A DNA stretch of 23,458 nucleotides, taken from the IMG/VR virus record IMGVR_UViG_3300020234_000071. One strand, given 5' to 3'. Made by a program: the position numbers and the translations under genes. The first letter of the stretch is position 1; each line of letters starts with the position of its first letter. The notes below the pieces were generated by a model. It made no database searches, was not told the DNA's origin, and was given only the letters and a program-made list of their open reading frames with translations. Below, piece by piece: positions 1-19,123 of this stretch. The DNA comes from an uncultured virus (IMG/VR IMGVR_UViG_3300020234_000071). Taxonomy: Duplodnaviria; Heunggongvirae; Uroviricota; Caudoviricetes.

Positions 1-179
1 CTGGTCTCATTGTCTTCAATCATGTTATCGATTAAAGCCATTGCATCTTTTTTAGATTCAGCATCCCAAGGGTAGTGATTCATCCCTTCAAGTTTGATCA
101 TCCAACCAGTGTCATCAACGGCAAGTTCATATCCCCGATAGGAATATTCCCCTGTCTTAATTCGTGTTGCTCTATTCAT
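1..179 (-). CDS. small hypothetical phage protein, runs off the left edge
   Basis: Manual translation from ATG at 179: MNRATRIKTGEYSYRGYELAVDDTGWMIKLEGMNHYPWDAESKKDAMALID..., open to position 1; starts 5 nt after the stop of 185..406. Confidence 0.7.
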   Translation of the reverse strand, partial: MNRATRIKTGEYSYRGYELAVDDTGWMIKLEGMNHYPWDAESKKDAMALIDNMIEDNET

Positions 180-184
180 ATCGT

Positions 185-406
185 TTACTTTATCCAAGTT
201 CCATTATTGTCAGTAGTCAGAACCATGTTTTTAAGTTTGTAACCATCAGCAGAAACTACCACTACTGAAGACCAATAAAATTTTCCAAGGTCTCCCAACA
301 TCGGGCAGTATGTGGGTTTGTGATTCCAGTAGACCCGAAGATTTTTCAAAGAAGGGTTTGCCTTTTTGATCATTCGTTTTGCTACAGCAAGTGTTGGTTT
401 TTTCAT
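185..406 (-). CDS. hypothetical early protein (73 aa)
   Basis: ORF directly downstream of the minus-strand promoter at 442-470. Confidence 0.75.
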   Translation of the reverse strand: MKKPTLAVAKRMIKKANPSLKNLRVYWNHKPTYCPMLGDLGKFYWSSVVVVSADGYKLKNMVLTTDNNGTWIK

Positions 407-441
407 ATCGTGTTCATCTCTTTGTTTGTTTTCGTACTATA

Positions 442-470
442 AGTATAGCATAGTTAGAAATATTTGTCAG
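442..470 (-). promoter_or_regulatory. sigma70-type promoter, leftward
   Basis: Minus strand reads CTGACA-17 bp-TATACT, with TG extended -10. Confidence 0.75.
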
Positions 471-511
471 GTTTATTTGCACTTAATATCAATTTATTTA
501 TCGAAAAGACC

Positions 512-539
512 TTGCTTTTATTTGTCAAGGTGCTATACT
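512..539 (+). promoter_or_regulatory. sigma70-type extended -10 promoter, rightward
   Basis: TTGCTT (512-517), 16-bp spacer, TGc-TATACT (hexamer 534-539). Confidence 0.7.
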
Positions 540-558
540 TAAGGTATACAAACAAACA
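518..558 (+). repeat. 41-bp promoter repeat, copy 1 (copy 2 at 22088-22128)
   Basis: TTATTTGTCAAG(G/A)TGCTATACTTAAGGTATACAAACAAACA, 40/41 identical. Confidence 0.95.
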
Positions 559-573
559 AAGAGACACACGAAA

Positions 574-798
574 ATGAATACAAATAAAGTTGAATTAAGA
601 TTTGAAGCAGGATGTGAAGAAGATTGTGGAAGGGCTTTTGAAGTTGCTGATATAATCCATGCCCCTGAAGATTCGATACATGCAAAGATGGAATCTGAAG
701 ATGGTACTTACTTTGTAATGAGGGTTGTATTGAATGACCCGATGAACACAGACATCAATGAGTTGGTCAAGAAAATTGACTACCTGATGAACCTTTAA
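574..798 (+). CDS. hypothetical early protein (74 aa, acidic)
   Basis: ORF immediately after the promoter. Confidence 0.75.
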   Translation: MNTNKVELRFEAGCEEDCGRAFEVADIIHAPEDSIHAKMESEDGTYFVMRVVLNDPMNTDINELVKKIDYLMNL

Positions 799-810
799 AC
801 GAGACACGAA

Positions 811-1002
811 ATGGCAAAACCAAACAAGATGGGAATGAGTGCAAAGCAATTGATGCGGTCTCGCCGCGCTCGATTTGGTATGCCTAAACCTAAGCCTCTT
901 GGTGATGATTGGGAAGCCTTTTATGACAAGATGGAAAAGGGTGATATGTCTGTTGAGCAAATGAAATCTGAAATGGAAAAGTTGTTGGATAAGAAATCCT
1001 AA
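811..1002 (+). CDS. hypothetical protein (63 aa)
   Basis: Co-oriented ORF 12 nt after the previous stop. Confidence 0.7.
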   Translation: MAKPNKMGMSAKQLMRSRRARFGMPKPKPLGDDWEAFYDKMEKGDMSVEQMKSEMEKLLDKKS

Positions 1003-1009
1003 TATCTGC

Positions 1010-1038
1010 TTGACAAATATTTTAAAGTAGTGTAAGCT
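1010..1038 (+). promoter_or_regulatory. sigma70-type promoter
   Basis: TTGACA-17 bp-TAAGCT. Confidence 0.75.
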
Positions 1039-1146
1039 TAACACATAAGTAGGGCAGTGCTTTCGTTAAATTCCTATCTATTGGTAAGGGAGCGTTTTAC
1101 TTTTCTCTGCTCAAGCAGTAAGCTACAAATAACTAGGGGATAGTTA

Positions 1147-2331
1147 ATGATTAAAAAGGCAGTGAGTGGTTTGATACCACTCATATCTGTGAGGTCAACT
1201 GACCTTCTTCACATTGAGTTTGTTCTGCGGGGTTTGTTTCCCAAGCATAATGTTATGGCTTTGGGTTCCAAGTTCGTTGAGAGTGAAGAGTTGACCCCCC
1301 TATATTATTCCGTTGGAACTTCAAAAGAAAATTCCCTGAACGATCTTTATAATGATGCTGAGCAAAATGAATACTCAGTAATATTTATCAATCATGACCC
1401 AGACCCAAGATTAATGGAGTGTGGGGAATTAGTCCCAGATGAAAAAACAATTCATCAAATGCTTAAGGGAGAAATCCCAACTAAAATTCTGAAAGAATCT
1501 GTTGCCTATCTCAAGGGTTTGACAGTTCAACATATCAAACAAACACTTTCCCTTTGCTCTATCTACTACGATCAGATTTCCGTGGAGAGCATCCGCAAAA
1601 CCAAAGAAAGATTATTCATTCATCAAACGGGAATTACAAAAGTTGACCCTGAGACCCCATTTTATTTTGGTGGAAATAATTTGTCTTTGTGGGTAGCTGA
1701 AAATAAACCTTATATGTTTGCGGATGTCGATCATAGATTAGTTCCCAAAGGGGTTTTGATGTACGGGGAATCTGGGACAGGTAAAACTGAATTTTCAAAA
1801 TATGTTGCGCGGGAATGGGGGCTATCTTTATTTCTGTTGGATGTTAATTCCATGCTATCGAAATGGCAGGGAGAAGCAGAGCATCATCTGAACCAAGCAC
1901 TTGTAACATTGGATAAGGAAAGCCCGTGCATAGTTTTGTTTGATGAAGTGGAAAAGCTTTTCATGAACAATAGCGAAAACGATACAAGCCAAAGATTGTT
2001 GTCTAAACTTTTGTGGTGGTTACAATATAAATCCAGTAAGGTTTTTGTTGTGATGACCTGTAATAATTTGGAAGCACTCCCCACAGAACTTTATAGATCA
2101 GGCAGGATAGATCAATTAATTAAATTGCAGGGTTTGCACAAAGATCAATTAGCAGATTTTGTTACTCAGCTTTTAGAAAGTTTTGGAGTTGATACTAAAG
2201 CTAATGAATGTATGAAGGTGGTTGGTGCTAAAATGGCACAAAGCAAAACCACTAGCAAAGAGTTTTTCCCACAGGCTTTAGTAAGTCAGTGGGTCATTGA
2301 GTATTTACAATCAACGAAGCACGGACTATAG
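1147..2331 (+). CDS. AAA+ ATPase, Ycf46/SpoVK-like
   Basis: Walker A GESGTGKT, pore loop SKWQGEAE, Walker B VLFDEVEK, second region of homology TCNNLEALPTELYRSGRID. Confidence 0.88.
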   Translation: MIKKAVSGLIPLISVRSTDLLHIEFVLRGLFPKHNVMALGSKFVESEELTPLYYSVGTSKENSLNDLYNDAEQNEYSVIFINHDPDPRLMECGELVPDEKTIHQMLKGEIPTKILKESVAYLKGLTVQHIKQTLSLCSIYYDQISVESIRKTKERLFIHQTGITKVDPETPFYFGGNNLSLWVAENKPYMFADVDHRLVPKGVLMYGESGTGKTEFSKYVAREWGLSLFLLDVNSMLSKWQGEAEHHLNQALVTLDKESPCIVLFDEVEKLFMNNSENDTSQRLLSKLLWWLQYKSSKVFVVMTCNNLEALPTELYRSGRIDQLIKLQGLHKDQLADFVTQLLESFGVDTKANECMKVVGAKMAQSKTTSKEFFPQALVSQWVIEYLQSTKHGL

Positions 2332-2342
2332 GAGATAGGAAT

Positions 2343-3065
2343 ATGATACAAGAAAACTTGGTTAAGAAAACCATTACCCTGAAAACTTTGGATAGGATTG
2401 AGGGTAGCGAAGGGAACAAAGATTATTTTGTTATCCATGAAGACAGGATTCGCTTTTGTTTGAAGCTTGATTTCAGTATGAATTATAGTGGGCAACCCAC
2501 AGGATTTTTTGTGCGGATACGAATGATTCCTTCTGCTAAAATCGATTTGTACAACATGGAAAACTGGTTTAACTCTAATTTCAAATCAAATGAAGTGGCT
2601 AAGAAATTGAGTAACAAAAGTATCAAAGCCAGTCATTTGACTATTGGTGATGAACGGGTTTCTTATGTGATGGGAGCAGAACATAATTTGTCAGACTACG
2701 GAGACCCAAGCACTAAGAAAGGTTGGGACACATTGATAACAGCGTTGACCAAAGATTTTGATGATCTGGGAAAACGTATTATTCGAAGCATGGGAATTTT
2801 TTGTAAGACCCCGAGTAAAGCACAGAAAGTAATTCAGCAAAGCATGAAAGATTACATTCTGATGTATGCCCCTGAAGAACCTACGGGCAAGAAGGCTTCG
2901 GTTACGCCGATCAAAAAGAAGGCTGCAAAAAAGAAAGTGATAGCAGCAGAAACTACTTTCAAAGAAGCAGCGGAAGAAATCCTTTCTGATATTTGCGGGG
3001 AACCCATGTCAATAGAATTGGATGATGTGCATGAGGGGGAACCAGAAATAAAACCCAAGAAATAA
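2343..3065 (+). CDS. hypothetical protein (240 aa)
   Basis: Long ORF with upstream AGGAG/AGGA; no motif recognised. Confidence 0.75.
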   Translation: MIQENLVKKTITLKTLDRIEGSEGNKDYFVIHEDRIRFCLKLDFSMNYSGQPTGFFVRIRMIPSAKIDLYNMENWFNSNFKSNEVAKKLSNKSIKASHLTIGDERVSYVMGAEHNLSDYGDPSTKKGWDTLITALTKDFDDLGKRIIRSMGIFCKTPSKAQKVIQQSMKDYILMYAPEEPTGKKASVTPIKKKAAKKKVIAAETTFKEAAEEILSDICGEPMSIELDDVHEGEPEIKPKK

Positions 3066-3092
3066 CGGGGCAATCTACAGCCGAAGTTCGTT

Positions 3093-4043
3093 ATGAGTTT
3101 TGAGCTAACCCAGAAGGTTATTCGTAACCAACTGAAACTTAGCCTTTGTGAAAAAATGATGTTAGCTATTATCGCTGACAAAATTGATCACAAAGGCTTT
3201 TGTTATCCGTCTTATAATACTTTAAGAACAATTGGTGACTGTACCCGAAGACACGTAATTAGAAGTATTAAAGTTTTAGTCAGACACAAATTAATTACCA
3301 TCAAGAAAATTCTGGGCAAAGGAAATCAATATACTATTGATGAAAAAGTCTTGGATAAAAGGATTGACGAAGTTAAAAAAGGGGAGTCAACTGGTGACAT
3401 AGAGTCACTAGCACTAGTGTCACAGAGTCACCCCCCTAGTGACATAGTGTCACCCCACTGGTGTCATGATGTCACCCTAGTAGATAAGGTAGTAAATAAG
3501 GAAGTAGATAAAGGTAGTAAAGTGATTTCAAAAAACGAAATCACAAAACCAAATTCCGATTCTATAGAAGGGGTAGGAGAAGAAATGAAAATAGAAGATT
3601 TGGATTTAACACAGTTTAAGAAAACCAATAAAAAGAAAATGAATCCAATTGATGTTTGGAGAAATGCCTGTGTGGATTATCTAGAAGAACATTCTAATGC
3701 CCCAATAAATTTGAATTACAAACAGGTACATGCAGGGACAATGAATAAGGTTGCAAAAAGTTTGGACACCATGTATCAACCGTGCGTTGAATCTGCGGTT
3801 TCTAATTGGGGGGCATTTGTTAAGTTTGTAAATCTGGAAACAGGTGGGTCTAAAAAACCACCATCACCCAACATGAATTTCTTTGTTTATCATTCTCACT
3901 ACGCTTTATTATTCGCAATGAAGAAGATGGATAAAAGTGATACTAAGATCAAATCTCATTTACCCCCATTTAAAAAGAAACCTGTAACAGACCCATACAC
4001 CAAAGCACTATTAAAAGCTGTGGGGAAACTCAGTGGGGATTAA
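3093..4043 (+). CDS. phage replication initiator (lambda O-like architecture, N-terminal winged HTH)
   Basis: N-terminal CYPSYNTL...CTRRHVIRSIKVLVRHKLI...GNQY HTH pattern; internal iterons; upstream of loader and DnaB. Confidence 0.82.
   Translation: MSFELTQKVIRNQLKLSLCEKMMLAIIADKIDHKGFCYPSYNTLRTIGDCTRRHVIRSIKVLVRHKLITIKKILGKGNQYTIDEKVLDKRIDEVKKGESTGDIESLALVSQSHPPSDIVSPHWCHDVTLVDKVVNKEVDKGSKVISKNEITKPNSDSIEGVGEEMKIEDLDLTQFKKTNKKKMNPIDVWRNACVDYLEEHSNAPINLNYKQVHAGTMNKVAKSLDTMYQPCVESAVSNWGAFVKFVNLETGGSKKPPSPNMNFFVYHSHYALLFAMKKMDKSDTKIKSHLPPFKKKPVTDPYTKALLKAVGKLSGD
3391..3475. repeat. four iterons, putative replication origin
   Basis: CTR-GTGWCAYRRWGTCAC with 15-bp cores at 3394, 3417, 3439, 3461 (spacing 23, 22, 22 bp), followed by a purine/A-rich tract. 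Confidence 0.88.
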
Positions 4044-4656
4044 ATTAAAAACTAAAGACATTGAACCTGATGATATATCGGAAGATGAAAAATATCACAT
4101 GGAAGTCTATGGGGAATATTACGCCACAGGGATTTTAAATTATCAGAAGCATTGGCGCATGGTTCAAAATATTGGGATGTATGCAGAGCAATCAGGAATC
4201 CCAGAGTATTTTATTTACCATACTTCGGAAGGAATTTTGATGTCAAAGGATGTTGAATATCTGGAAGAGTTCAGCAGTCATTTCATCAAAGGAATTAGCG
4301 GGGCTGTGATCGAAAGCAATCACAACTTCATAGACCGGATGTATTCAATGGTGGGGGTTCTGATTCGTAACTTTATTGATGCACGATTCATCACCCTTCA
4401 GGATTTGATAAAGGAAATTAAAAGCGGAAACTCGCCCAAGAGCAAACTGATTTGCATTCCTAATTTTGCACTGGATAAATCTGAGGGGGGCAATGTGGCT
4501 ACATGGGAAATGTCTAATGTGCTTAGTTGGATGCTCAATAGTCACAGTCAGGGAAGGCAGGTAGTTATTTATGTTGAAACACTTGATTATATTAATCAAC
4601 AATACGGGGGAGTTCTTCGGACTCACATTGATAATCATTTTTTAGAATTAGAATAA
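4033..4656 (+). CDS. DnaC/IstB-like helicase loader, apparently ATPase-degenerate
   Basis: Lies between initiator and DnaB; SGIP, RFITLQDLI and QYG patterns resemble DnaC, but there is no GKT or hhhhDD motif; GTG start. Confidence 0.5.
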   Translation: MGIKLKTKDIEPDDISEDEKYHMEVYGEYYATGILNYQKHWRMVQNIGMYAEQSGIPEYFIYHTSEGILMSKDVEYLEEFSSHFIKGISGAVIESNHNFIDRMYSMVGVLIRNFIDARFITLQDLIKEIKSGNSPKSKLICIPNFALDKSEGGNVATWEMSNVLSWMLNSHSQGRQVVIYVETLDYINQQYGGVLRTHIDNHFLELE

Positions 4657-4666
4657 GGGGATAAAA

Positions 4667-4948
4667 ATGGAGATGACACGATACCTAGTAGTGGGCTATA
4701 AAAAATGGGGCAAAGGTAATGTAAGAATTTCGGCAAAAGCCCCATCGTTAAAGGCACATGAGATTTCAATAAAATTAAATCTTGAGATACCGGATGAACT
4801 GTTTTCAAAACCTGCACTGGAAGCAGATATAATCATCCCCGAAGATTCAGTGGTTGCAGGAAAAATTGATACGGAAATTATTGAAGATATTAAAAAGACG
4901 GTTGAAGACGGTCTTGGAATATCCATGCATATAAGTTTAATCCAGTAG
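4667..4948 (+). CDS. hypothetical protein (93 aa)
   Basis: RBS AAGGGG; fills the operon. Confidence 0.75.
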   Translation: MEMTRYLVVGYKKWGKGNVRISAKAPSLKAHEISIKLNLEIPDELFSKPALEADIIIPEDSVVAGKIDTEIIEDIKKTVEDGLGISMHISLIQ

Positions 4949-4960
4949 GGGATAATAACC

Positions 4961-6241
4961 GTGTCATCAAGTATCGGGCTAAAGCTCGTTTCTGCGCTAT
5001 TGAATGAGGGTGATGTAAAAGCATTTTCAAAGTTAGACATCAATCCTATTACGTTGAAAGAACATGAGAAAGAAGTTTATGATTTCATAAAAGATTTTAT
5101 CTACCAACACAAGTCAATGCCAAAATCTGAAACCGTGCTGCTAGATATGGGGTTGGATTCCCTGCCTATTGCCAAGGAAGTTAGTTCATATTATGCCAAG
5201 CAGATTCGGGAACGCTTCATAAGCGATACGATCAAGAAAGGATATGCTGATGTAAAACCCTTCCTACAAAAAGAAGATATGGATGTTCAGGCAGGGATAG
5301 ATTGTCTGACTGAAACCTTGATGACAATTCATAAAGCAACATCCAGAATATCTATTGTTGATTTCAAGGATGCACGGAAATTTATTGAACAGGCATATAA
5401 AGAAAAGAAAATGCTTGGCATGGATGGAACAGTTTTGATGGGCTACCCCACAGTAGATATTTTGTCTGGGGGTATGCAGGGTGGTGATCTGATTTCAATT
5501 GTGGGCAGACCTGCAATGGGTAAAACGTGGGCAACCTTATTTATGGCTCATAATGCATGGTATAACCAACATAAGACCGTTTTGTTCATCACTCTAGAAA
5601 TGACTGTGCTTGCCATAGAGCAACGATTAGCCAGTATGCATACCAAGCATAGTCTTACACAGCTTAAAAAGGCACAGCTTGCGACTAAGGCATACAAAGA
5701 CCTACTCAGTAAACTAGGTGTACTGTCTGATTTCAAAGAATCGTTTTGGATTGCGGGGGGCGATATTGCTTCGATGGTTGAAGACATCTGGAAACTCGTG
5801 ATGCAGGTTAATCCTGAATTTGTTGTAGTCGATGGTGCGTACCTGTTATCACATCCAAATCCAAGGATGGGGAAGTATGAAAAGGTTGCTGAGAATGCAC
5901 GGGCATTGAAGCAGATGCTTGCAATGGAATTTAATATTCCAGTGGTAGCCAGTTGGCAATTTAATAGGGGGGCTGAGAAAAAAATGGAAAAAGATAAACA
6001 GGTTGGATTGGAGGATATTGGATACACGGATGAAATCGGGCAACTCAGTTCTGTGGTGTTGGGTCTGATGCAGGAAGAAAGTATTGAAACTATCATGACC
6101 CGTGAGGTCAGAATTTTGAAGGGTAGGGATGGGGAGGTTGGAACTTTCAATACAAAATGGGACTTCGTTAATATGGATTTCGGGGAGCTACCCAAGACCC
6201 CAACAGGCAGTGAACCCAAGCAGGAAATTGTGGTGGACTGA
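4961..6241 (+). CDS. dnaB: replicative DNA helicase, DnaB family
   Basis: GRPAMGKT, FITLEM, VVVDGAYLL, QFNR and KGRDG motifs. Confidence 0.93.
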   Translation: MSSSIGLKLVSALLNEGDVKAFSKLDINPITLKEHEKEVYDFIKDFIYQHKSMPKSETVLLDMGLDSLPIAKEVSSYYAKQIRERFISDTIKKGYADVKPFLQKEDMDVQAGIDCLTETLMTIHKATSRISIVDFKDARKFIEQAYKEKKMLGMDGTVLMGYPTVDILSGGMQGGDLISIVGRPAMGKTWATLFMAHNAWYNQHKTVLFITLEMTVLAIEQRLASMHTKHSLTQLKKAQLATKAYKDLLSKLGVLSDFKESFWIAGGDIASMVEDIWKLVMQVNPEFVVVDGAYLLSHPNPRMGKYEKVAENARALKQMLAMEFNIPVVASWQFNRGAEKKMEKDKQVGLEDIGYTDEIGQLSSVVLGLMQEESIETIMTREVRILKGRDGEVGTFNTKWDFVNMDFGELPKTPTGSEPKQEIVVD

Positions 6242-6432
6242 TGATTGTTAATACACAAGGTACTTCACAGGTGGTAATTGAGAGACTACAAGCGCGGGTG
6301 AAAGAATTGGAGAACATTGAAGAAAAGGCACATGCGATTGTTAAATATATGCGGAAGGAAAATATAGATGCTGTGTTGGCAGTTGTTGCTGAACTAGGCT
6401 TGCTATTTCCACCACAGAGTAACGGGGATTGA
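6241..6432 (+). CDS. hypothetical protein (63 aa)
   Basis: TGATG overlap with the dnaB stop. Confidence 0.65.
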   Translation: MIVNTQGTSQVVIERLQARVKELENIEEKAHAIVKYMRKENIDAVLAVVAELGLLFPPQSNGD

Positions 6433-6528
6433 TAGCGACTCCAATTTGGTTGAACAAGGGATTACCCAAAAAAACCAGTTTTGCCTATAGGGGGGGTATA
6501 GGGGCCCAATTTTTTTCAATAAAAAGGC

Positions 6529-6557
6529 TTGACAAATATTATTACATGTACTATTAT
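6529..6557 (+). promoter_or_regulatory. strong sigma70 promoter driving the non-coding unit
   Basis: TTGACA-17 bp-TATTAT with upstream T/A tracts (UP-element-like). Confidence 0.85.
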
Positions 6558-6562
6558 ATAGG

Positions 6563-6914
6563 GGTAAGCAACAAAACACGGAGAAAGTTTATATAGAAAT
6601 GGTGCATTTAAGAAGGTGAATGGAAACGGGCTGAGAGGTCGCAAGAATTAGGTAAGCCATTCATAACCGCAAAGTCTACTGTTAAGGATGATGCGGCTCT
6701 TTCCAAGAGGATTAACAGCTAAGCACAGGGACTTCAGAAATGAAGTAATAACAGATTCAAAAAGTGCTTAGTCATAGAGGCTGCAACAGAAGTTTGAGGA
6801 TGCAATAGGCAACATCAAGCAAGATGGAAAAATGCTAGGACAACCAATACTGTTCCTGATTCACGGTTTTGGAATCCAACCAAATTTATTACTGCCCCTT
6901 GATTGGGGCTTTTT
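6563..6914 (+). ncRNA. candidate large structured ncRNA, ROOL-like 5' half
   Basis: No ORF of 60 aa or more between promoter and terminator (apart from a rejected TTG extension); helices 6617-23/6657-63, 6679-85/6712-18, 6697-701/6705-09, 6719-26/6764-71, 6731-36/6741-46 with a GAAA tetraloop. Confidence 0.75.
6894..6914 (+). terminator. intrinsic terminator
   Basis: GCCCC-ttgatt-GGGGC-TTTTT. Confidence 0.75.
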
Positions 6915-6940
6915 GGCAAACAAAGCAAGGGGATATAAAA

Positions 6941-7402
6941 ATGGCAATTAAGCTAAAGACAAAATCAAAAGTGAAGTTGGCAATAGGCAAAAAAACTGCT
7001 GTCACTTCTGATACTGGAATCGAAGTAGCAACTAAATTACTTCCTGAAGCATTCAAGCTCAAGAAGGAAATTTCACTTCTGGCTGCTAAGACCAAAAATC
7101 TTACCGACAAACTTAACCCTATTGAAACAGAAATCCGTGAACTTGTTGACCCTGAACTTGATGGGACAGCATCCGTGAATCTGATCAATGGTGATTTGGT
7201 TATGGGGGTTTCTGCTCGTGTACAGTCACGTACTGTTATAGACACAGATGATGTTGTGATTGCACTGGAAGATTTCGAAGAAGGTCTTGCCCTGAAACTG
7301 GCAAAATTTGCTCTGGGTGATCTGGATAAATATTTTAGTCCTGATGAAATGGCAAAGCTGACTGAAATAAAAGAAGGAAATCGCAGACTCAAATACGGGT
7401 AA
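6941..7402 (+). CDS. hypothetical protein (153 aa; start corrected to ATG 6941)
   Basis: RBS AAGGGG before ATG; MAIKLKTK N-terminus; helical middle region. Confidence 0.8.
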   Translation: MAIKLKTKSKVKLAIGKKTAVTSDTGIEVATKLLPEAFKLKKEISLLAAKTKNLTDKLNPIETEIRELVDPELDGTASVNLINGDLVMGVSARVQSRTVIDTDDVVIALEDFEEGLALKLAKFALGDLDKYFSPDEMAKLTEIKEGNRRLKYG

Positions 7403-8340
7403 TGAAGCAGCAACAGGTAATTGATTTCCTCACGGTATTGGGTGGGGAGGTCACAACCACAACTTCAAATTGGGCAACCTGTAGATGTATCTTTGCTAGG
7501 TTCCTGCATGAAGGTAAGGTTGATAATCATCCTTCAAGTGGAATGACTATCACAGGGGGGGAATCAAAATACAATTGCTTTACATGTGGGGAGCGTGGAA
7601 CCCCTTATGAGATTTACAAGAAATTAAAATTTATGTTCAGGGGGGAAGTACCACAGAAAATCGATCTAAAAAAAGCTATGCAGATTATCGATGCGGAAGA
7701 ATATGATGAGGAATTAGAATTTCCAGATTACGAAACCGAGATTGCAAAAAAGCCTGTTGCGTTAATTCCCTTCGATGAGCATTGGTTTCATTGTTTCCCT
7801 TCTGCATATTCCCATCCCTATATTCAGGTGCGGGGAATTTCTGCTGAGTTGGCAGAGCAGATTGACATACGGTTAGATTTTGAAAAGTGCAGATTATTAT
7901 TTCCAATCAGAGATTGGGAAGGGGTTTTGATGGGTATACATGGGAGAACTTTTTTGGATGATATTGAGCCAAGATATTATTCTTATCCTAGTAACGGTGT
8001 GAGAAATCCTAGCGTGTGGATGGGGGAAGATCATGTTGATCTGGAAGAGCCTGTGATTTTGGTTGAAGGTCAATTTGACTATGCCAAGATCAGGGTTCAT
8101 TACAACAATGTTTTGTCTGGTCAAACCACACAGGTTCAGGTGGACAAGATTAAAAGACTTTCGGGGGCAGAAGAAATTATAACGATTTTTGATAATGGGG
8201 TTGGTGGTGACAAGGGCAGGGAAAGAATTTCAAAATACTTTACCAAGATTCCTGTGACCCATTTGAAACCACCGGAACCATACGGGGATTTGGGACAGAT
8301 GCCAGATGATATAGTTCTAGAATTATTGGAGTCTGTTTGA
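7402..8340 (+). CDS. DNA primase (zinc finger + TOPRIM)
   Basis: N-terminal C/H...NCFTC, YIQVRGI, RLLFPIRD, ILVEGQFD, FDNGVGG. Confidence 0.9.
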   Translation: MKQQQVIDFLTVLGGEVTTTTSNWATCRCIFARFLHEGKVDNHPSSGMTITGGESKYNCFTCGERGTPYEIYKKLKFMFRGEVPQKIDLKKAMQIIDAEEYDEELEFPDYETEIAKKPVALIPFDEHWFHCFPSAYSHPYIQVRGISAELAEQIDIRLDFEKCRLLFPIRDWEGVLMGIHGRTFLDDIEPRYYSYPSNGVRNPSVWMGEDHVDLEEPVILVEGQFDYAKIRVHYNNVLSGQTTQVQVDKIKRLSGAEEIITIFDNGVGGDKGRERISKYFTKIPVTHLKPPEPYGDLGQMPDDIVLELLESV

Positions 8341-8365
8341 CAAATAAAAATCTATATGCGATAAT
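8337..8365 (+). promoter_or_regulatory. sigma70-type promoter
   Basis: TTGACA-17 bp-GATAAT with TG extended -10. Confidence 0.75.
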
Positions 8366-8413
8366 TGCGGTGTCCAATAGGACAATTTAACTTAAATAAA
8401 TCGGAGGGGCTAA

Positions 8414-9232
8414 ATGGCTCTTAAATTAAATAAAATACCTAAAGAAGTAAAGGGTGACACGAAGCCAACTAAGCTAAAAGTTGGTTCTAATAAATCTGAT
8501 GATTCTGGGTCTGAGAAACCAAAAAAACCTACTCATTCAATGTTGAAGAAAGGGAAGGCAGCAAAAGAAGCTTTGGTTGCTGAACAGCAAGCCGCACAGG
8601 TTCGGGATGAACAGCGGGAAAATCAGGTATTCCGTTTTTATATAAAGCCAGAAGCAGAACGGGTAATTTCATTTCTTGATGGTGGGCTAGATGTCGATGG
8701 TGATCTTGATAGTGTTTGCTATTACGAACACACCATAAATAATCCTGCTCAGAAATATCCCAAGTACGTTTGTATCAATGACCCTGCAAACGGGGTTGAG
8801 TGTCCTGTTTGTGCATCTGGGAATACTCCATATTTTGCTACTGTGTTTACAGTTTTGACTCATGAAAAATGGATAAGCAAAAAAGAGAAAAAGGAATACG
8901 AAGGTTCTATTCAATTGTTTATTGCCAAAACTGGTGTGGCTGACAAGCTACGCAAGAAAGCAAAGAAGCATGAAAACGGTTTGGTTGGTGCAACTTTTGA
9001 AGTGTCCCGCACGAATGCTGATGCCTTCAATGTGGGGGATGATTTTGATTTTGTTCAAACTAATACGCTTGAAGAGTTAGCGGAAATGTTCCCAGACTGT
9101 GAAGTTAAACCATTGGATTACGATGAAGTAATCAAAGTTCATTCCCCTGAAGAACTGTTAGCACTAGGGTTCGGAACTGCTACCGCTGCGGTTGGCGGGG
9201 AAGCGGGGGTTGATGAGGATGCGGTAGTTTAA
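8414..9232 (+). CDS. single-stranded DNA-binding protein, gp32-like
   Basis: YYEH...YVC...CPVC metal site, acidic C-terminal tail, position next to primase. Confidence 0.72.
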   Translation: MALKLNKIPKEVKGDTKPTKLKVGSNKSDDSGSEKPKKPTHSMLKKGKAAKEALVAEQQAAQVRDEQRENQVFRFYIKPEAERVISFLDGGLDVDGDLDSVCYYEHTINNPAQKYPKYVCINDPANGVECPVCASGNTPYFATVFTVLTHEKWISKKEKKEYEGSIQLFIAKTGVADKLRKKAKKHENGLVGATFEVSRTNADAFNVGDDFDFVQTNTLEELAEMFPDCEVKPLDYDEVIKVHSPEELLALGFGTATAAVGGEAGVDEDAVV

Positions 9233-10603
9233 ATGTCCTTGTTATTGAAACTGGCAAAAGAGGCACGGGAAAAATCCCCTGTCTCTGTTTCATCAGAACC
9301 AATTTCTACGGGTTCTGCTGCGGTATTTGATTACACACCAAAATTGTGTACTCAATATAGTTTGGTGGACAGATTTAAAAAACCTTATATAAATTATAGG
9401 GTTATCGGTAAGAATACGGATAGCCCAAGAATTATGTTACCCAGAATGAAGTATGAATTGGGGGCAGAAGATCGAAGAACAGAAGGATTTGATATTGATG
9501 TTGCCCTTCAGGTTGAACCAAGGAATGAAGATCAGAAGCGGGTGTGCATGGAATTAGCACAGCATTATGTAGATGGAAAGACAGGAATAATTGTCAATGC
9601 ATCAACAGGATTTGGGAAAACTTATGTGGGGTGTTCAGCTATTGAAGACCTGAGTACCACAACTTTGATTTTGATTACCAAGTCAGATTTGGAAGGGCAG
9701 TGGAGAGATTCCCTGAAGAAGTTTTTGGGTATGGATGCGGGGGATATTGGATTGATCAAGGGAAATACTTGTGATGTCACTGATAAATCCGTGGTGATTG
9801 CCTACGTGCAATCCATGATGAAAATGAAGAGATACCCAAGTTGGATTTATAAGAATTTTGGGTTGGTCATTATTGATGAAGTTCATTTAATGGCTGCTGA
9901 CAAATTTGTTAATTGTATGTGGCAACTTCCTGCAAAATATCGGTTGGGGTTGTCGGCTAAAATAACAAGATCAGATAGAAAGGAACATGTATTTAAAGAT
10001 CACATTGGAAGAACGGTTATCAAGGCTGATGTTTTGCCAATGCAGTTCAATGTGGTTGTGGTGCAGATTAATGTAATGGTTCCAAAGTGGGTGAGATACA
10101 AAGCGGGGAGAACGGCAAGCTTGAATAATTTTTTGGGGCAGCACGAGAATAGACAGGAAATCATTACCAATAAGATTTTGTATGCTTATGGGAAGGGAAG
10201 AAATATTGTTTGTTTTGCGGAGACCAGAAAGCATTTGGATTACGCTTATGATTGTTTGGTAGATGCGGGAGTAAAAATGTCTGATATAGGATTCTATGTG
10301 GGCATGAAAAGGAACACAGAAGAAGAAAAACAAAAGTTGATTGAACAGGCACATAAACGAATTGTGTTGGCAACCTATAAAATGACAGAGTATGGCACTG
10401 ATTTTCCTCATTGGGATACGGCTATGCTAATGACCCCACGGGCTGACATAGAACAAACTGTGGGAAGAATAGTAAGGGAATTGGTGGGTAAGAAAATTCC
10501 TTTGGTCTACGATTTTGTGGATTCAATTAAGTTGCTGCAAAATTATTTTAAGAGCAGATGCAAATATTATAATTTGAAAGCATTAAATATTGTTGGAGGT
10601 TAA
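9233..10603 (+). CDS. superfamily II helicase (UvsW/XPB-like)
   Basis: ASTGFGKT, IIDEVH, LGLSA, YGTDFP, QTVGRIVR. Confidence 0.92.
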   Translation: MSLLLKLAKEAREKSPVSVSSEPISTGSAAVFDYTPKLCTQYSLVDRFKKPYINYRVIGKNTDSPRIMLPRMKYELGAEDRRTEGFDIDVALQVEPRNEDQKRVCMELAQHYVDGKTGIIVNASTGFGKTYVGCSAIEDLSTTTLILITKSDLEGQWRDSLKKFLGMDAGDIGLIKGNTCDVTDKSVVIAYVQSMMKMKRYPSWIYKNFGLVIIDEVHLMAADKFVNCMWQLPAKYRLGLSAKITRSDRKEHVFKDHIGRTVIKADVLPMQFNVVVVQINVMVPKWVRYKAGRTASLNNFLGQHENRQEIITNKILYAYGKGRNIVCFAETRKHLDYAYDCLVDAGVKMSDIGFYVGMKRNTEEEKQKLIEQAHKRIVLATYKMTEYGTDFPHWDTAMLMTPRADIEQTVGRIVRELVGKKIPLVYDFVDSIKLLQNYFKSRCKYYNLKALNIVGG

Positions 10604-10607
10604 TGAA

Positions 10608-11102
10608 ATGGGTACAGGAAATGGAAGGAAAACATCTAAAAAGAAAAGGGTGTTTAAGGATTGGTATGAAGAAAATGCCGATGCTTTGAATAAGCAAAAG
10701 AAAAAACGGTATGCAAAAGACACTGCCTACAGGGAAGCGGGGAAGTCTCGTGTGCGGGATAAGTACAAGGAAGATCATAATATTTTTCTTGATGGAAGTA
10801 GATTGGTTAAATCCAAAAGGATTAACTATGTGGCTATTAAATTGAGTGAGGCTGCTGACAAACTTGGAATTAATCTGAATACTTTACGTGGATATTACCA
10901 CCGCAAATATTTTCCTGTTTTTGTTTTTGATAATACGAAGTTGAAACTGGTCACAGTTGATCAGTTGTCGTTGCTTCAGAGATTCGTTGAAACGGCTGCT
11001 GAAGATGGTGCGGCTTCTGCTTCCAAAAGCATGAAGAAATTTTTGAAGAAAAATTGGAGGAATCGAAGTGTCAGTAAAGAAATTATCAATCAAAAAGGGT
11101 AA
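10608..11102 (+). CDS. basic protein with a C-terminal MerR-like HTH
   Basis: GGAGGT 7 nt before ATG 10608; LSEAADKLGINLNTLRGYYHRKYFP. Confidence 0.7.
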   Translation: MGTGNGRKTSKKKRVFKDWYEENADALNKQKKKRYAKDTAYREAGKSRVRDKYKEDHNIFLDGSRLVKSKRINYVAIKLSEAADKLGINLNTLRGYYHRKYFPVFVFDNTKLKLVTVDQLSLLQRFVETAAEDGAASASKSMKKFLKKNWRNRSVSKEIINQKG

Positions 11103-11559
11103 GCAGGGTAAGTTGGTGGTTCATAAAGAACCCACCGCTGAAGATGAATCTGAAGTTGAAGACCCACCATTTGAGCCTGATGAAGAATTTGTTGAGCCGG
11201 GGGAGCCTGTGGTAATTGCTACAAAGTCTAAAAAAACATTTGGCAAAGGAAAGTTAGGGAAACCAATTCAAGGTACGGTAGGGATTAAGGAACAGGATTC
11301 CCCTGAAGAAGTTAATCAGGTGGATGTGGAAGGTGCTGAATCTGTGCAACCCGAAGGTAAGCCAATGGCAAATGTTGGGTACGGTATTGATCGGACTGTA
11401 AATCTTGGGGATTTTGAAAGCTTGAAAATTCATGTGACCCTTCATGTTCCAAGTGAGGTTGATGAATCTGAAATTGAAGGCAATTATAATTTTTGTAAAG
11501 GATGGGTTGAGAAAAAAATGGAGGAAGTAATTTCTGAGTATACAGATTCAGATGACTAA
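11068..11559 (+). CDS. acidic hypothetical protein
   Basis: GTG start; low-complexity N-terminus; compact C-terminal RTVNLGDFESLKI region. Confidence 0.75.
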   Translation: MSVKKLSIKKGKQGKLVVHKEPTAEDESEVEDPPFEPDEEFVEPGEPVVIATKSKKTFGKGKLGKPIQGTVGIKEQDSPEEVNQVDVEGAESVQPEGKPMANVGYGIDRTVNLGDFESLKIHVTLHVPSEVDESEIEGNYNFCKGWVEKKMEEVISEYTDSDD

Positions 11560-12598
11560 AATTTCTGAAATTCAGATAGACCTGAAAAAAGCTCACGGGG
11601 AACAGTTCGTAACTTTGGCTGAAGAAACCAAAGGTGATATTGAAAGATTGCCTACGGGAATTTATCCATTTGATTATGCCACAGGTGGAGGATTCCCACG
11701 GGGCAGAACTTCTATTATTTGGGGCGCGGAATCTAGCGGTAAAACTAATCTTGCCCTGAAAGCTATTGCAATGAATCAAAGACTTGAACCTGAAAAGGTA
11801 AATGTGTTTATTGATTTGGAACATTCCTTTGACCCTGAGTGGGCAACTCTGATTGGTGTTGATTGCAGTAAAAAGAAATTAGCAGTTATACAACCATATT
11901 ACGCTGAGCAAGCTATTAATATAATTCAAGGGATTGTCTCTGCGGATGATGCGGGATGTATCGTACTCGATTCTATAGGTGCAATGATAACAATCAATGA
12001 GGATGAATCTGATGCCGCTAAGCGTCAAGTTGGCGGGGAAGCATTAGTGATAACCAAGATGGTAAAGAAATTGATTGTGGGTATGTCACGGGCTACCAGT
12101 TTTGGAAGATACCCCACAGTTCTGATTATCAATCAAATGAGAACTAAAATTGGGGTGATGTTTGGAAGCCCTGATGATATGCCGGGTGGAAAAGCTTTGA
12201 AACATCATTCAGCTTTAACCGTGAAAGTTAGGGCTTCAGATGAATTTGATAATAATATCAATAAAGATAGAGCATCTTTTAAATTGGTGAAAGGGTCAGT
12301 TCATAAAAGTAAAGTGCGAACACTACACAAGAATTTTGAATTTTTATTTCCCCTCACAAATCAGGGGGGGTTGAAGGTCGGATATATTGATGACTGGAAT
12401 ACTATTTCAACTCAGTTAAAAGATTTGGGGTGGCTATACAAGGAAGGTAAGGCAGTGGTTTGTTTCGATCAACAATATAAAACTTACAAGGCAGTGCGGG
12501 AAGACCTATACAAACAGCCCAAACTTTTGGATGCAATCAGAGAAAAAATTATGGAAGCCAAAATGAGTGAATTGTACGGAACAGAGGATGAAGAATAA
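11552..12598 (+). CDS. recA: RecA-family recombinase
   Basis: GGGFPRGR, GAESSGKT, FIDLEHSFDP, VLDSIGAM, INQMRTKIGVMFGSP..PGGKALK. Confidence 0.95.
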   Translation: MTKISEIQIDLKKAHGEQFVTLAEETKGDIERLPTGIYPFDYATGGGFPRGRTSIIWGAESSGKTNLALKAIAMNQRLEPEKVNVFIDLEHSFDPEWATLIGVDCSKKKLAVIQPYYAEQAINIIQGIVSADDAGCIVLDSIGAMITINEDESDAAKRQVGGEALVITKMVKKLIVGMSRATSFGRYPTVLIINQMRTKIGVMFGSPDDMPGGKALKHHSALTVKVRASDEFDNNINKDRASFKLVKGSVHKSKVRTLHKNFEFLFPLTNQGGLKVGYIDDWNTISTQLKDLGWLYKEGKAVVCFDQQYKTYKAVREDLYKQPKLLDAIREKIMEAKMSELYGTEDEE

Positions 12599-12600
12599 AT

Positions 12601-12708
12601 ATGGAATTGTATAAAGTGCAGATGATAGTTGATTCTATTGAATTGTCTGCTTTAGGAATTATGATTGCAATTCTAGCAGCAGTAGTTATTTTAATTATGT
12701 CGAAATAA
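12601..12708 (+). CDS. 35-aa single-pass membrane protein (not in ORF track)
   Basis: MELYKVQMIVDSIELSALGIMIAILAAVVILIMSK; fills the gap between recA and the next gene. Confidence 0.6.
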   Translation: MELYKVQMIVDSIELSALGIMIAILAAVVILIMSK

Positions 12709-12712
12709 TTGA

Positions 12713-13105
12713 ATGATTTGGGAACGCAAGCCAACGAAGAATAAAAATCCGCTGATGACTGATGTTCCATTGCACGGGCAGAAATCAGAAGAGCGTGTTC
12801 TTAAAGATATGGGGGCAATGCAAACTATTGCTTCGGGTTCCCTTGATGGTATGAAATCTGATGGAGTAAAAAATAACCTGCGGATTGAATGCAAGGCTAC
12901 TCTGAAAAAGTCTATATCACTTAAACATGAGTGGCTTTTGAAGATCAGGGAAGAAGCCCTTGCCACTAATAAAATACCAGTGCTGACAATTTCATTTGTT
13001 AATGCTGATGGGGAGTCTAAAGCGGGGGGAGATTATGCAGTGATTCCTCTTTATCTATTTACAGATTTTGCTGAATGGTTGGGTGAGAATGAAAGCGAAA
13101 TTTAA
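12713..13105 (+). CDS. PD-(D/E)XK nuclease, Hjc-type Holliday junction resolvase-like
   Basis: GQKSE, ASGS, KSDG, RIECKAT motifs. Confidence 0.78.
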   Translation: MIWERKPTKNKNPLMTDVPLHGQKSEERVLKDMGAMQTIASGSLDGMKSDGVKNNLRIECKATLKKSISLKHEWLLKIREEALATNKIPVLTISFVNADGESKAGGDYAVIPLYLFTDFAEWLGENESEI

Positions 13106-13979
13106 AAAATCCAGTGAGCTAAAATCTGAGCAAGGATTGAAATATCTTTTGCATAAGGAACTTGCTGTGACTGACCCACCTAGAGACATCCAAGATTTAC
13201 ATGCTTCCGAATTGACCAGAGAAGATATTGAATTTTGCGCTAGGGAACGTGCGTTTCTTTTGCGGGATGGTGACAACAGAAAAGATGGTAGGCTTGGCAC
13301 ATCGTTGAATGTCACTTATCAAATTGGACGTTGGTATGAAAATCAGGTGCGGAATAAGTGGTTGAGAAAATATGCGTTAGGAAATTGGGAATGTTCAAAT
13401 TGTAATCACGTTGTTGAATATCAAACTGTTCCTGAAATGTGTGATGCTTGCGGGGCAAGTGGAAAACAAAGTGTGTATCTAGAACCCCGTGCGTACTCCC
13501 CTGAATTTGATTGTAGTTGTGGGATAGATATGCTGCTGTGGAAAGATGAAATCTTGACAACAGTGGAAATCAAAACGATTAAGGCTGAAGATTTCAAAGC
13601 ATTAGAAGCCCCATTATCTGAGCACAGGAGAAGAACACAATTTTATCTTGACCTACTTTCTCATAGCACTTGGATGCATTTTGAAGTGAAGTTTAATCTT
13701 GAATATGGATTGCTACTTTACATCTGCAAGGGGTTTGGATTCAAGGATGATTTTGAAGGAAGGAAAGGGGTGAGTGATGCCAACTTTAGTCCGTTCAAAG
13801 AATTTCGAGTTCAACGTGGGGATGGTGTGGGATTAGAAAGTGTGTACAAAAAAGCCTTAGCTGTGAAGAAATTTAAAGCAGATGGGATAATACCCAAGCG
13901 TGAAGTTTGCCCCACAGTAACTTGTAAACGTGCGAAAAGATGCACCTATAGAGAAACTTGTTTTTCGGAGAAATCATGA
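13089..13979 (+). CDS. Cas4-like PD-(D/E)XK exonuclease with a zinc-ribbon insert
   Basis: HASEL..FCAR, GIDML, VEIKT, QFY, C-terminal Cys cluster, internal CSNC/CDAC; ATG 13089 preferred as start. Confidence 0.8.
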   Translation: MKAKFKKSSELKSEQGLKYLLHKELAVTDPPRDIQDLHASELTREDIEFCARERAFLLRDGDNRKDGRLGTSLNVTYQIGRWYENQVRNKWLRKYALGNWECSNCNHVVEYQTVPEMCDACGASGKQSVYLEPRAYSPEFDCSCGIDMLLWKDEILTTVEIKTIKAEDFKALEAPLSEHRRRTQFYLDLLSHSTWMHFEVKFNLEYGLLLYICKGFGFKDDFEGRKGVSDANFSPFKEFRVQRGDGVGLESVYKKALAVKKFKADGIIPKREVCPTVTCKRAKRCTYRETCFSEKS

Positions 13980-14461
13980 TTAAATTAAAAACTGAAAAAT
14001 TAAAAGCTACACTTGCGGGGATTGAAAATGCATGGAAGGGAACCCCAGAAGAGTACAAATTAGAAGCAGAGAAATTTATTCGGAGCTATGCAAAAAAGCA
14101 TCTTTATTTTGATGGTGGGGATGTCTTGCTTGCATGGCGAAAGACAGAAAAACCTGTTGCTCAAATGGTTTGGCGTAATCGTTGGGGGGCTGCAATTAGT
14201 TTTGCCGCTAGATCAGGGGTAATGAGAAAAGTGGGTAGATCAATTCCACAGTCAAGACAGTCACATGTTATTTCTTTAGTGCTATGGGAAAGCAAATTAT
14301 ACAGGGGAGAGCAGGAGAAAAAACCTGCCTTCAATTATGCGATAAGAAATATAATGAGCAATATTATTTTTGGAAAAACGAAAATTGAAAAAGCATTATG
14401 GCTTGCCTACGAATTTGGATTTGAGGATAGTAGACTTCAACAACAGAGCAGAAAAAAATGA
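13976..14461 (+). CDS. hypothetical protein (start ATG 13976)
   Basis: GGAG RBS and ATGA overlap with the previous stop. Confidence 0.75.
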   Translation: MIKLKTEKLKATLAGIENAWKGTPEEYKLEAEKFIRSYAKKHLYFDGGDVLLAWRKTEKPVAQMVWRNRWGAAISFAARSGVMRKVGRSIPQSRQSHVISLVLWESKLYRGEQEKKPAFNYAIRNIMSNIIFGKTKIEKALWLAYEFGFEDSRLQQQSRKK

Positions 14462-14991
14462 AAATACTTGGGATTGACCCATCCTGTAATATGGGGCTGA
14501 TAGTTTTGGAAAGAAAAAAAGATACTGTTACCACAATTCATCAACAGGTTTATTCATCCAAGGCAAAAGGGATGCAAAGGTTGGGGGATATTGGGGGCTG
14601 TATAATCGATATGCTGAAGACCTATGAACCTGACTTGGTAGCACTGGAAGGTTACTCATTTGGTTCTAAATTTAATCATGAAATAACGTATTCTGTAGGC
14701 ACTGTAATTAGATACTTTTTGTGGCAATCGGAGTATGATTATAAAATATTACCCCCTTCAACTTTAAAGAAATTTGTAACGGGCAAGGGCAACTGCAAGA
14801 AAGATTTAATGCTTTTGGGGGTTTATAAAAATTGGGGATTTGATACTACTGATGATAATTTATCCGATGCTTACGGGATTGCTTTATGCACCCTGTTTGA
14901 AAATTTGGGTATTGCCGATGAAAAAGGAGTTTGGAAAAAGGGGGATGCAAAGCACTTGAATTTTATTCATTCCCCTGCAAAAAAAGTTTGA
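14458..14991 (+). CDS. ruvC: RuvC-like Holliday junction resolvase
   Basis: ILGIDPS, VALEG, PSTLKKFVTGKGNCKK, DNLSDAYGIA. Confidence 0.9.
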   Translation: MKILGIDPSCNMGLIVLERKKDTVTTIHQQVYSSKAKGMQRLGDIGGCIIDMLKTYEPDLVALEGYSFGSKFNHEITYSVGTVIRYFLWQSEYDYKILPPSTLKKFVTGKGNCKKDLMLLGVYKNWGFDTTDDNLSDAYGIALCTLFENLGIADEKGVWKKGDAKHLNFIHSPAKKV

Positions 14992-15009
14992 TCTTAGTAT
15001 CAAATGTAC

Positions 15010-15038
15010 TTGACAAATATTAATTCTTCTGGTAAGCT
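15010..15038 (+). promoter_or_regulatory. sigma70-type promoter
   Basis: TTGACA-17 bp-TAAGCT with TG extended -10. Confidence 0.78.
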
Positions 15039-15084
15039 TAGGAAGTTGAAACAATTGTACATGAATATTTAGGAGATTATAAAC

Positions 15085-15936: not shown

Positions 15937-15960
15937 ATTTTACTGATGTAAGAAAAACCG

Positions 15961-15990
15961 AAGGGTGCGCTTTAGGGTGTACCCTTTTTT
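15961..15990 (+). terminator. intrinsic terminator
   Basis: AAGGGTGCGC-tttagg-GTGTACCCTT followed by a T run. Confidence 0.8.
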
Positions 15991-16003
15991 GTATGGGGAT
16001 AAT

Positions 16004-16537
16004 ATGAATTTCAACAGGTACGCCAAAAAGATTTATGCCCACAATAAACAAGTTGGTTGGTGGGATGACCCAAATCGTTGTCTGTACCAAACTCTTCAAC
16101 TGGTATCTACCGAGATAGCAGAAGCTACTGAAGGGGAAAGAAAGGATTTGATGGATGATCATATTCCACATCGAAAAATGGGGGAAGTAGAATTAGCTGA
16201 TGCCCTGATTCGGGTACTGGATTTTGGGCAACACATGAAAGTTGTTTACAAGCAGGGATACCCCGCGCATGTGTGGTGCTTCGAAGACAACACTATTGGA
16301 CAACAACATCTGGGAATCAACAGCGCATTGTTGTCTGTTGCTGATGACTATTCCCGCTATCCTTATGCGGATATGACCCGCACCTATTGCATGTTAATTG
16401 AATCGATTGTTGCGGTAGCTGAGAACCAAGGCTATGACCTTGAGGGCGCGGTTAAGGATAAGATGCTGTACAACGAAACCCGAATTGACCATACCCGAGA
16501 ATATCGGGGCAGTCATTTTGATGGGAAACGATTTTAA
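16004..16537 (+). CDS. MazG-like NTP pyrophosphohydrolase
   Basis: TEIAEATEGERK, EVELADALIRVLD, KMLYNETR; GGGGA RBS before ATG 16004. Confidence 0.82.
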   Translation: MNFNRYAKKIYAHNKQVGWWDDPNRCLYQTLQLVSTEIAEATEGERKDLMDDHIPHRKMGEVELADALIRVLDFGQHMKVVYKQGYPAHVWCFEDNTIGQQHLGINSALLSVADDYSRYPYADMTRTYCMLIESIVAVAENQGYDLEGAVKDKMLYNETRIDHTREYRGSHFDGKRF

Positions 16538-16554
16538 CAACACAGGAAAATAAA

Positions 16555-19116: not shown

Positions 19117-19123
19117 AAAGAAC

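Follow-up and report, generated by a model that had tools for sequence, protein, structure and literature searches.

A conserved, pseudoknotted RNA as a candidate stand-alone gene in the replication region of uncultured sediment phages

We have identified a conserved, folded RNA between the helicase and primase genes of an uncultured Caudoviricetes virus (IMG/VR record IMGVR_UViG_3300020234_000071), of which the whole stretch of 23,458 nucleotides, here called the window, was analysed. The conserved core of this RNA (positions 6578 to 6878, plus strand, 301 nt) lies between promoter and terminator motifs, has homologues with a covarying fold, differs among them in a non-coding pattern, occurs in two genomic contexts and is missing from one contig of a relative. 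We favour, with modest confidence, the explanation that the locus is a separately promoted gene for an accessory RNA that folds, acts in trans, is exchanged horizontally between phages and is not ROOL. The core measures about 300 nt, and the predicted transcript would measure about 350 nt. We infer its transcription, its processing by RNase P in one phage, its action in trans and any molecular target.

The core is seen in five distinct versions only, four from related phages and a fifth from a different one. The first is that of the window (locus L022 has the same sequence, and L025 differs only outside the core). The second, L001, comes from the complete genome G001 (89 kb, terminally repeated); the third, L002 (identical to L003), from G002; the fourth, L004, from G003; and the fifth, recovered as the identical loci L006, L024 and L036, from G004, a 64-kb contig. 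Core length ranges from 268 to 303 nt across versions, and covariance model R1 of the RNA scores 328 bits on the window and 256 to 315 bits on L001, L002, L004 and G004, with one copy per genome searched.

The window is a phage replication block with all genes on the plus strand, and the 508 nt from 6433 to 6940, between the helicase and primase genes, form the widest gap among plus-strand open reading frames (ORFs); this ranking covers the window from about position 570 onwards, the stretch before it containing short ORFs only. No credible ORF was found in 6529 to 6914. The gap carries a sigma-70-type promoter on the plus strand (TTGACA-17-TATTAT, 6529 to 6557) that matches the consensus at 11 of 12 positions, from which transcription would start at about 6564, and an intrinsic terminator on the same strand (6894 to 6914), in which a 5-bp G+C stem (GCCCC-6-GGGGC, 6894 to 6909) closes a 6-nt loop and is followed by a T5 run, U5 in the RNA. 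All three features, the gap, the promoter and the terminator, had been proposed in a sequence-only reading of this DNA, and all three hold. Only three plus-strand promoters with 11 of 12 matches occur in positions 1 to 20000 (at 6529, 8337 and 19124), each within an intergenic gap. An equivalent 11 of 12 promoter precedes the RNA in L001, L002 and G004, so that four of the five versions have one; none was found ahead of the RNA in L004 under the rule of the promoter tool. The same terminator hairpin follows the RNA in L002 and L004 and, by direct reading, in L001, and a stable 3' hairpin ends the RNA in all five versions. With a promoter in four versions, a 3' hairpin in five, a non-coding pattern and covariation, the locus has the appearance of a stand-alone phage RNA gene.

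Fold and coding potential of the RNA

The fold is supported by covariation. The sequence-only reading had as its central claim that a phage replication block encodes a structured RNA that is non-coding and lies between a promoter and a terminator, and this claim is borne out by covarying homologues. Our model comprises helices P1, P2, P2a, P3, PK, P5, P5a, P6, P6a and P7 and the terminator, and was counted on alignment A2 of six rows. In A2, 95.9% of the cells are paired and 29 of 59 pairs have changed on both sides; these counts are not independent events, because four of the five versions share one clade and two of the rows are near-identical. None of 500 column shuffles reached the values of the model, and sliding the 3' partners by one to three columns left at most four pairs changed on both sides. 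RNAalifold, applied independently to A2, predicted 66 pairs, and in 26 of these both partners have changed.

The 5' domain (6612 to 6703, plus strand, as are all parts of the RNA) is a three-way junction supported by covariation on A2, and its helices P1, P2, P2a and P3 have 96.7-100% of their cells paired. It is closed by P1 (GAAGG, 6612-6616, with CTTTC, 6699-6703), a new long-range helix in which three of five pairs have changed on both sides. Within it, P2 (TGAATGG, 6617-6623, with CCATTCA, 6657-6663), a helix already visible in the single sequence, covaries at four of seven pairs, and P3 (CCGCA, 6667-6671, with TGCGG, 6692-6696), which had been listed as a possible pairing, covaries at four of five; the hairpin P2a (6629-6640), capped by a GNRA loop, has one of four pairs changed on both sides. 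Helix PK (CTGTTAA, 6679-6685, with TTAACAG, 6712-6718) has the best support of all helices in a scan that required conservation in four or more of the five versions, with 100% of its cells paired and all seven of its pairs changed on both sides. This helix had been read as the stem of a local hairpin enclosing another pairing; the helix stands but the enclosed hairpin does not, since PK joins the P3 loop to a segment outside P1 and crosses both P3 and P1, and therefore forms a pseudoknot.

P5 (CTAAGCAC with GTGCTTAG, 6719-6726/6764-6771) abuts PK directly, and four of its eight pairs, which had been predicted as they stand, have changed on both sides. Its inner hairpin P5a (ACTTCA-GAAA-TGAAGT, 6731-6746), with a GAAA loop, was likewise foreseen and is present in three of five versions, two of its six pairs having changed on both sides. 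P5a is absent in G004, and in L004 a different hairpin takes its place; MAFFT misaligns this region of L004, realignment of P5 and P6 there with a covariance model brought no gain, and the region was read by eye. The 3' domain (6796 to 6878), which is 90% identical to that of G004 over 81 nt, holds P6 (6802-6804/6833-6835), which scarcely varies, the hairpin P6a (6813-6826), with three of four pairs changed on both sides, and the hairpin P7 (6849-6867), whose loop is UCCUGAUUC and which never varies. A second pseudoknot between AGGA (6838-6841) and UCCU (6854-6857), seen by eye and without variation, is possible. The remaining pairings of the sequence-only reading (CTCTT/AAGAG, TCTA/TAGA, AAGTTT/AAATTT and AACCG/CGGTT) were dropped: taken together, they are paired in 68.6% of cells, no more than in shuffles, and one of their 20 pairs has changed on both sides.

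Among gap-free columns, invariance is commoner in unpaired positions (67 of 168) than in paired ones (28 of 92). The most notable invariant run is the internal loop on the 3' side of P2 (6641 to 6656), in which AGGUAAG and flanking G, A and U are invariant in alignments A2 and A4. Upstream of the junction, the A-rich 5' leader (6564 to 6611) shows no supported pairing in the helix scan, and in the same two alignments it includes a conserved GGAG (6580-6583) and an invariant AUGGU (6599-6603). The GGAG stands 14-16 nt before the AUG, as against ~7 nt at the real gene at 6941, and the six-codon frame from 6599 to 6619 stops on the first bases of P2 in three of five versions; as a coding frame it was rejected, being cut to two codons in L001 and L002. 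Downstream of the core, a variable 15-nt linker (6879 to 6893), poorly conserved in A2, leads to the terminator.

A longer frame in the 3' half raises the question of a small protein. The frame through 6796-6950 is open in all five versions in the same register, and its ATG at 6832-6834 is invariant. Differences by codon position are 5/5/3 between the window and L001 and 6/2/1 between the window and G004, quite unlike those of the primase gene (29/17/89, 26/17/88 and 64/45/164), where third positions dominate. In L004 the frame is thrown out of register by a 1-nt insertion amid bases that are otherwise invariant. Such a protein gene would moreover cross the terminator and overlap the start of the next gene, and direct reading found no good ribosome-binding site for it. 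With a non-coding substitution pattern and a broken frame, the small protein was rejected as a candidate, and we regard it as very improbable.

Distribution and genomic contexts

The RNA appears restricted to a small set of phages, as far as the family is visible to exact-motif scans, which are blind to divergent members. A search of IMG/VR with the primase recovered four contigs with identical gene order; neither a profile of those primases nor the DUF932 protein of G004 as an anchor yielded further phages, and blastn of three RNA versions against GenBank phages gave no match. Motif scans covered IMG/VR, a collection of metagenomes and the prokaryotes, each species being represented by one genome; once filtered by alignment and by model R1, they added one new phage contig, G004, and copies of known ones. 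The IMG/VR scans returned 10 loci (5 by chance), 7 (3 by chance), 23 (18 by chance) and 4 (all known), and the metagenome scan 4 loci, each on a known contig or a copy of the window. The prokaryote scans gave 0 and then 71 loci, none of them real by model R1 (at most 18.5 bits, from the motif only). The region 5500-8500 is present, with at least half of the sampled words, in 18 sequencing runs from about ten studies, including the likely source sample, and the labels of these runs are marine sediment, subsurface, sediment or marine metagenomes; no RNA run was listed among those carrying the region. Two runs labelled metatranscriptomic WGA may be DNA; their contigs cover genes and RNA alike and are uninformative on expression.

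Core identities with the window (74% for L001, 69.8% for G004, 69.5% for L002 and 59% for L004) are out of step with the relatedness of the phages. Flanking DNA is ~81% identical between the window and G001. The RNA is the sole DNA similarity between G004 and the 23-kb window, to which only one weak 63-residue protein match can be added. G004 is a remote relative of the clade of the window, and G004 and G001 have in common only remote structural genes (25-55% amino-acid identity) and one small protein. The replication genes also belong to different families: the window encodes an O-like initiator, DnaB and a DnaG-type primase, and G004 an AEP primase, a UvrD-type helicase, DUF932, a clamp-like protein, DUF4326 and PolA. 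G004 has no relatives of the window ORFs adjoining the RNA, and no partner protein encoded beside the RNA in both phage types was found.

In G004 the RNA again lies inside the replication cluster, directly after an upstream terminator and the 11 of 12 promoter, and ends in a 12-bp hairpin (z = -3.7). A tRNA-Tyr(GTA), the sole tRNA called by ARAGORN on this contig, begins 0-2 nt after the hairpin, with no terminator between RNA and tRNA and no strong one on that strand for ~7 kb. ARAGORN found no tRNA or tmRNA in the window, as the sequence-only reading had remarked of tRNAs, but the G004 homologue thus adjoins one. The T4 tRNA-cluster stable RNAs, species 1 and 2, are co-transcribed with tRNAs, whose processing sets them free. 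A like release is suggested by the arrangement in G004, although the T4 species are much smaller and a terminator, not a tRNA, ends four of the five versions of the present RNA.

A natural arrangement without the core comes from a comparison of contigs from four public runs with the window at an 85% likeness threshold. In a relative's 547-nt contig from run X16, positions 6557 and 6880 are separated by only 20 letters, which resemble 6558-6577. The contig thus has a promoter followed by a short leader and then by linker and terminator, but is without the core, and its dnaB end differs from the window at 40 of 293 positions. The stretch missing from it, 6578-6879, is the unit common to the window and G004. 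The same contig also skips 6180-6511, including a 63-codon ORF, possibly with other letters in its place, and relatives appear to vary in this part of the genome.

These contexts lead us to favour a trans-acting accessory RNA, because the core travels without its neighbour genes and is absent from one relative, and because its loops are invariant and it is set off by a variable linker. Under this explanation, host RNA polymerase would start at the near-consensus promoter at about 6564, and the transcript would fold into a pseudoknotted 5' domain (the P1-P2-P3 junction, PK and P5) and a 3' domain with invariant loops. A discrete RNA would then be released, its 3' end protected by the stable hairpin, through intrinsic termination in phages of the window type and probably through an RNase P cut at the adjoining tRNA-Tyr in G004. 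Some of the polymerases would read through and so express the downstream replication genes. The RNA, as an accessory cassette exchanged between phages, would act in trans at the time these genes are expressed, either by binding a host or phage factor or by self-assembly.

The serious rival, owing to the place of the RNA at the head of replication operons, is antitermination in cis: the nascent folded RNA, still bound to the polymerase, would act as a processive antiterminator past 6894-6914 and later sites. The RNA comes directly after a strong promoter and heads co-directional replication genes in both phage types. No strong promoter of their own was found for the ORF at 6941 and the primase gene, the next 11 of 12 promoter being at 8337, and the terminator stands between the RNA and these genes. 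As promoters of that strength occur only at 6529, 8337 and 19124, the ORF and the primase gene probably need read-through of a rather weak terminator, and one transcription start would serve both the RNA and the downstream genes. HK022 put RNA and the Bacillus EAR element are processive antitermination RNAs, and they too are folded RNAs just after a promoter and before a terminator and a long operon. They are far smaller, however, the core here being several times bigger than known antiterminator RNAs. Additionally, the relative without the core keeps both promoter and terminator, which argues that read-through there is independent of the core, and G004 has no terminator behind the RNA, where the 3' hairpin and the tRNA suggest a released product. 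On balance we hold the leader in cis to be possible but doubtful.

Two further roles have less in their favour. The order of promoter, conserved fold, terminator, ribosome-binding site and gene, together with conserved unpaired bases, would suit a riboswitch or attenuator, in which the core would serve as a ligand- or tRNA-binding aptamer controlling the terminator at 6894-6914. The linker between core and terminator is variable, though, and the helix scan found no conserved alternative pairing to the terminator arms, and the RNA of G004 lacks a terminator and is followed by a tRNA, not by a related gene. On these grounds the class was rejected, in which an aptamer overlaps an expression platform with mutually exclusive terminator and antiterminator pairings, upstream of genes of related function. 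No Rfam riboswitch or T-box model matched the window region or the G004 RNA at E<=10; a riboswitch is therefore quite unlikely in our judgement. 

An origin-associated transcript, priming or activating replication as a primer or R-loop whatever the type of initiator, could account for a strong host-type promoter and for the presence of the RNA in the replication clusters of two phages with unrelated replication proteins. ColE1 RNA II is a structured transcript that runs into the origin and is cut there, and T4 has R-loop origins. The likeness to RNA II lies in a structured transcript, a host-type promoter and a replication region. In contrast to it, the present RNA does not continue into primable DNA, since a terminator ends it or a tRNA follows it, and it appears dispensable, one relative being without the core. 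Conservation falls on the pseudoknotted fold and its invariant loops and apparently not on repeats or on a stretch rich in A+T, and we judge a priming role unlikely.

Several points weigh against the trans-acting RNA that we prefer. In both phage types the RNA is first after a strong promoter and ahead of replication genes, and this position, with the ORF at 6941 and the primase gene lacking a strong promoter, is exactly what a role in cis predicts. The comparison rests on five distinct sequences, four of one phage clade, and P7, which is invariant, and P6, which varies at one position on one side, gain no support from covariation. Folding energy is no better than that of shuffled sequences (z-scores of the minimum free energy: window -1.1, L004 +1.5, G004 -0.7) and does not bear out the earlier description of the RNA as highly structured; the structural case rests on covariation. 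The tRNA link is seen in one of five versions, the complete genome G001 having no tRNA and G002 one that lies ~22 kb from the RNA; G003 has no tRNA. The core-less form is one contig from one run at the 85% threshold and could be an assembly artefact. Finally, the RNA gene is read from sequence alone, and we infer its expression.

Comparison with known RNA families

The sequence-only reading had tentatively linked the RNA to ROOL, as a compact member of that family, and this link found no support. At gathering thresholds, cmscan of the window against 4227 Rfam 15 families gave no match, and the same was true of G001 and of the rest of G004. The check that had been suggested, a scan against ROOL, GOLLD, raiA and group I intron models, gave no match to ROOL, GOLLD, raiA or introns at E<=10 on 6400-7000, and none for the G004 RNA; permissive scans of the window and the G004 RNA returned only chance-level matches to unrelated families (E>3), and L001 and L004 had none at E<=1. 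GOLLD (RF01998), raiA, group I introns, RNase P, tmRNA and T-box were thus rejected as candidates, with no match to their Rfam models.

For ROOL itself (RF03087; gathering score 99.1 bits), none of the four related phage records (G001 to G004) matched at E<=10, whereas the same tool gave 130.4 bits on the published ROOL of Ligilactobacillus salivarius pMP118 (PMC5643018) as a positive control. Reciprocally, model R1 does not match the pMP118 ROOL. The longest word common to the two RNAs is 8 nt, against a shuffle mean of 8.9, and of five motifs that had been proposed as ROOL-like, three are absent from the pMP118 ROOL and the other two are 6-mers. ROOL has an average length of 581 nt (PMC5737381), with six junctions and three pseudoknots. 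The present core, at 268-303 nt, is about half as long and has far fewer junctions (PMC5737381), and its architecture of one three-way junction and one covariation-backed pseudoknot is not that of ROOL.

Some resemblances nevertheless exist. ROOL is often encoded close to tRNAs (PMC5737381, bioRxiv 10.1101/2024.12.08.627333) and within prophages (PMC5737381). In L. salivarius it is not essential, differs in its presence from strain to strain and has a link to replicon copy number (PMC5643018). The present RNA lies on phage contigs in all five versions, is pseudoknotted and adjoins a tRNA in one. Like ROOL, it is phage-associated and multi-helical with no known protein partner, and the core-less contig and the replication context echo the variable presence and copy-number link of the L. 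salivarius RNA (PMC5643018). It differs from ROOL in habitat, having been found in marine sediment phages. Taking the failed model match in both directions with the difference in size and junctions, we consider membership of ROOL extremely unlikely. GOLLD is a large phage RNA often beside or linked to tRNAs (bioRxiv 10.1101/2024.12.08.627333), a likeness that one version of the present RNA shares; GOLLD is often >800 nt.

We therefore rate the RNA, judged against Rfam, as a probable new family within a known broad kind of phage RNAs, with a consistent place of its own among replication genes; a literature search surfaced nothing relevant to it, which cannot establish it as unpublished. Few structured RNAs of such size are known to be encoded by phages, and none is known to have an assigned function. 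Recent work has shown that ROOL and GOLLD form RNA-only cages, ROOL assembling with itself into a homo-octamer. It is conceivable, if speculative, that the RNA is a self-contained machine and a compact counterpart of such 'ornate' phage RNAs, self-assembling or a ribozyme with no dedicated protein; as a mobile ~300-nt cassette always entering the replication cluster, it might act on replication or tRNA supply whatever the replisome.

It is unusual for an RNA to be the one thing common to two phages with unrelated replication genes. The size of this RNA suits it to chemical probing and structural studies, covariation already constrains its pseudoknotted fold, and the natural core-less arrangement can be used as a control. 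If a role in or beside replication were found, an RNA player would be added to the biology of phage replication or takeover, and uncultured marine-sediment phages would gain a handle.

Neighbouring genes and minor observations

The genes around the RNA, all on the plus strand, include an AAA ATPase (1147-2331), the O-like replication initiator (3093-4043), the DnaB-type helicase (4961-6241) and the 63-codon ORF (6241-6432) upstream, and a 153-codon ORF (6941-7402) and the DnaG-type primase (7402-8340) downstream. The 153-codon ORF begins with an ATG at 6941, preceded by a ribosome-binding site downstream of the terminator. The window also encodes helicase, RecA/UvsX, resolvase, ThyX and Mom-like proteins. 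A pyrophosphatase-like gene, ThyX and the Mom-like protein are clustered at 15965-19116 and may together serve to modify nucleotides or DNA.

Just upstream of the -35 box, 6487-6521 holds an invariant ATAGGGGGGG run (seven G), a second ATAGGGG nearby and then a T-run. The ATAGGGGGGG run is kept in all four phages of the clade of the window and is absent in G004; the element may act as a terminator-like hairpin behind the upstream genes, or else be bound by a protein. Elsewhere, the promoters at 8337-8365 and 19124-19153 are both of sigma-70 type, intergenic and matched at 11 of 12 positions, and a terminator at 19469-19486 has almost the same stem as that at 6894-6909. The extra promoters and this terminator suggest a set of transcription units for the host polymerase.

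On the G004 contig, two tRNA-like stubs follow the tRNA-Tyr (L036 8020-8204, minus strand), neither of them called by ARAGORN. The first (~8148-8195) has an acceptor-like stem, a short hairpin and a T-arm but no D-arm, and gives weak matches to a mascRNA-type model (E=0.13) and to the 3' end of tmRNA (E=0.07); the second shows a T-arm-like hairpin around 8040-8060. The small protein common to G001 (74708-74953) and G004 (16115-16360; L036 10065-10409, minus strand), phrog_13625, is 62% identical between them, far above the other genes they have in common, and is absent from the window; it may be another exchanged cassette. Finally, an element of ~95 nt at 407-581 of the window recurs in at least three places in G001 (285-444, 38375-38468 and 67695-67787) and looks like a dispersed intergenic repeat.

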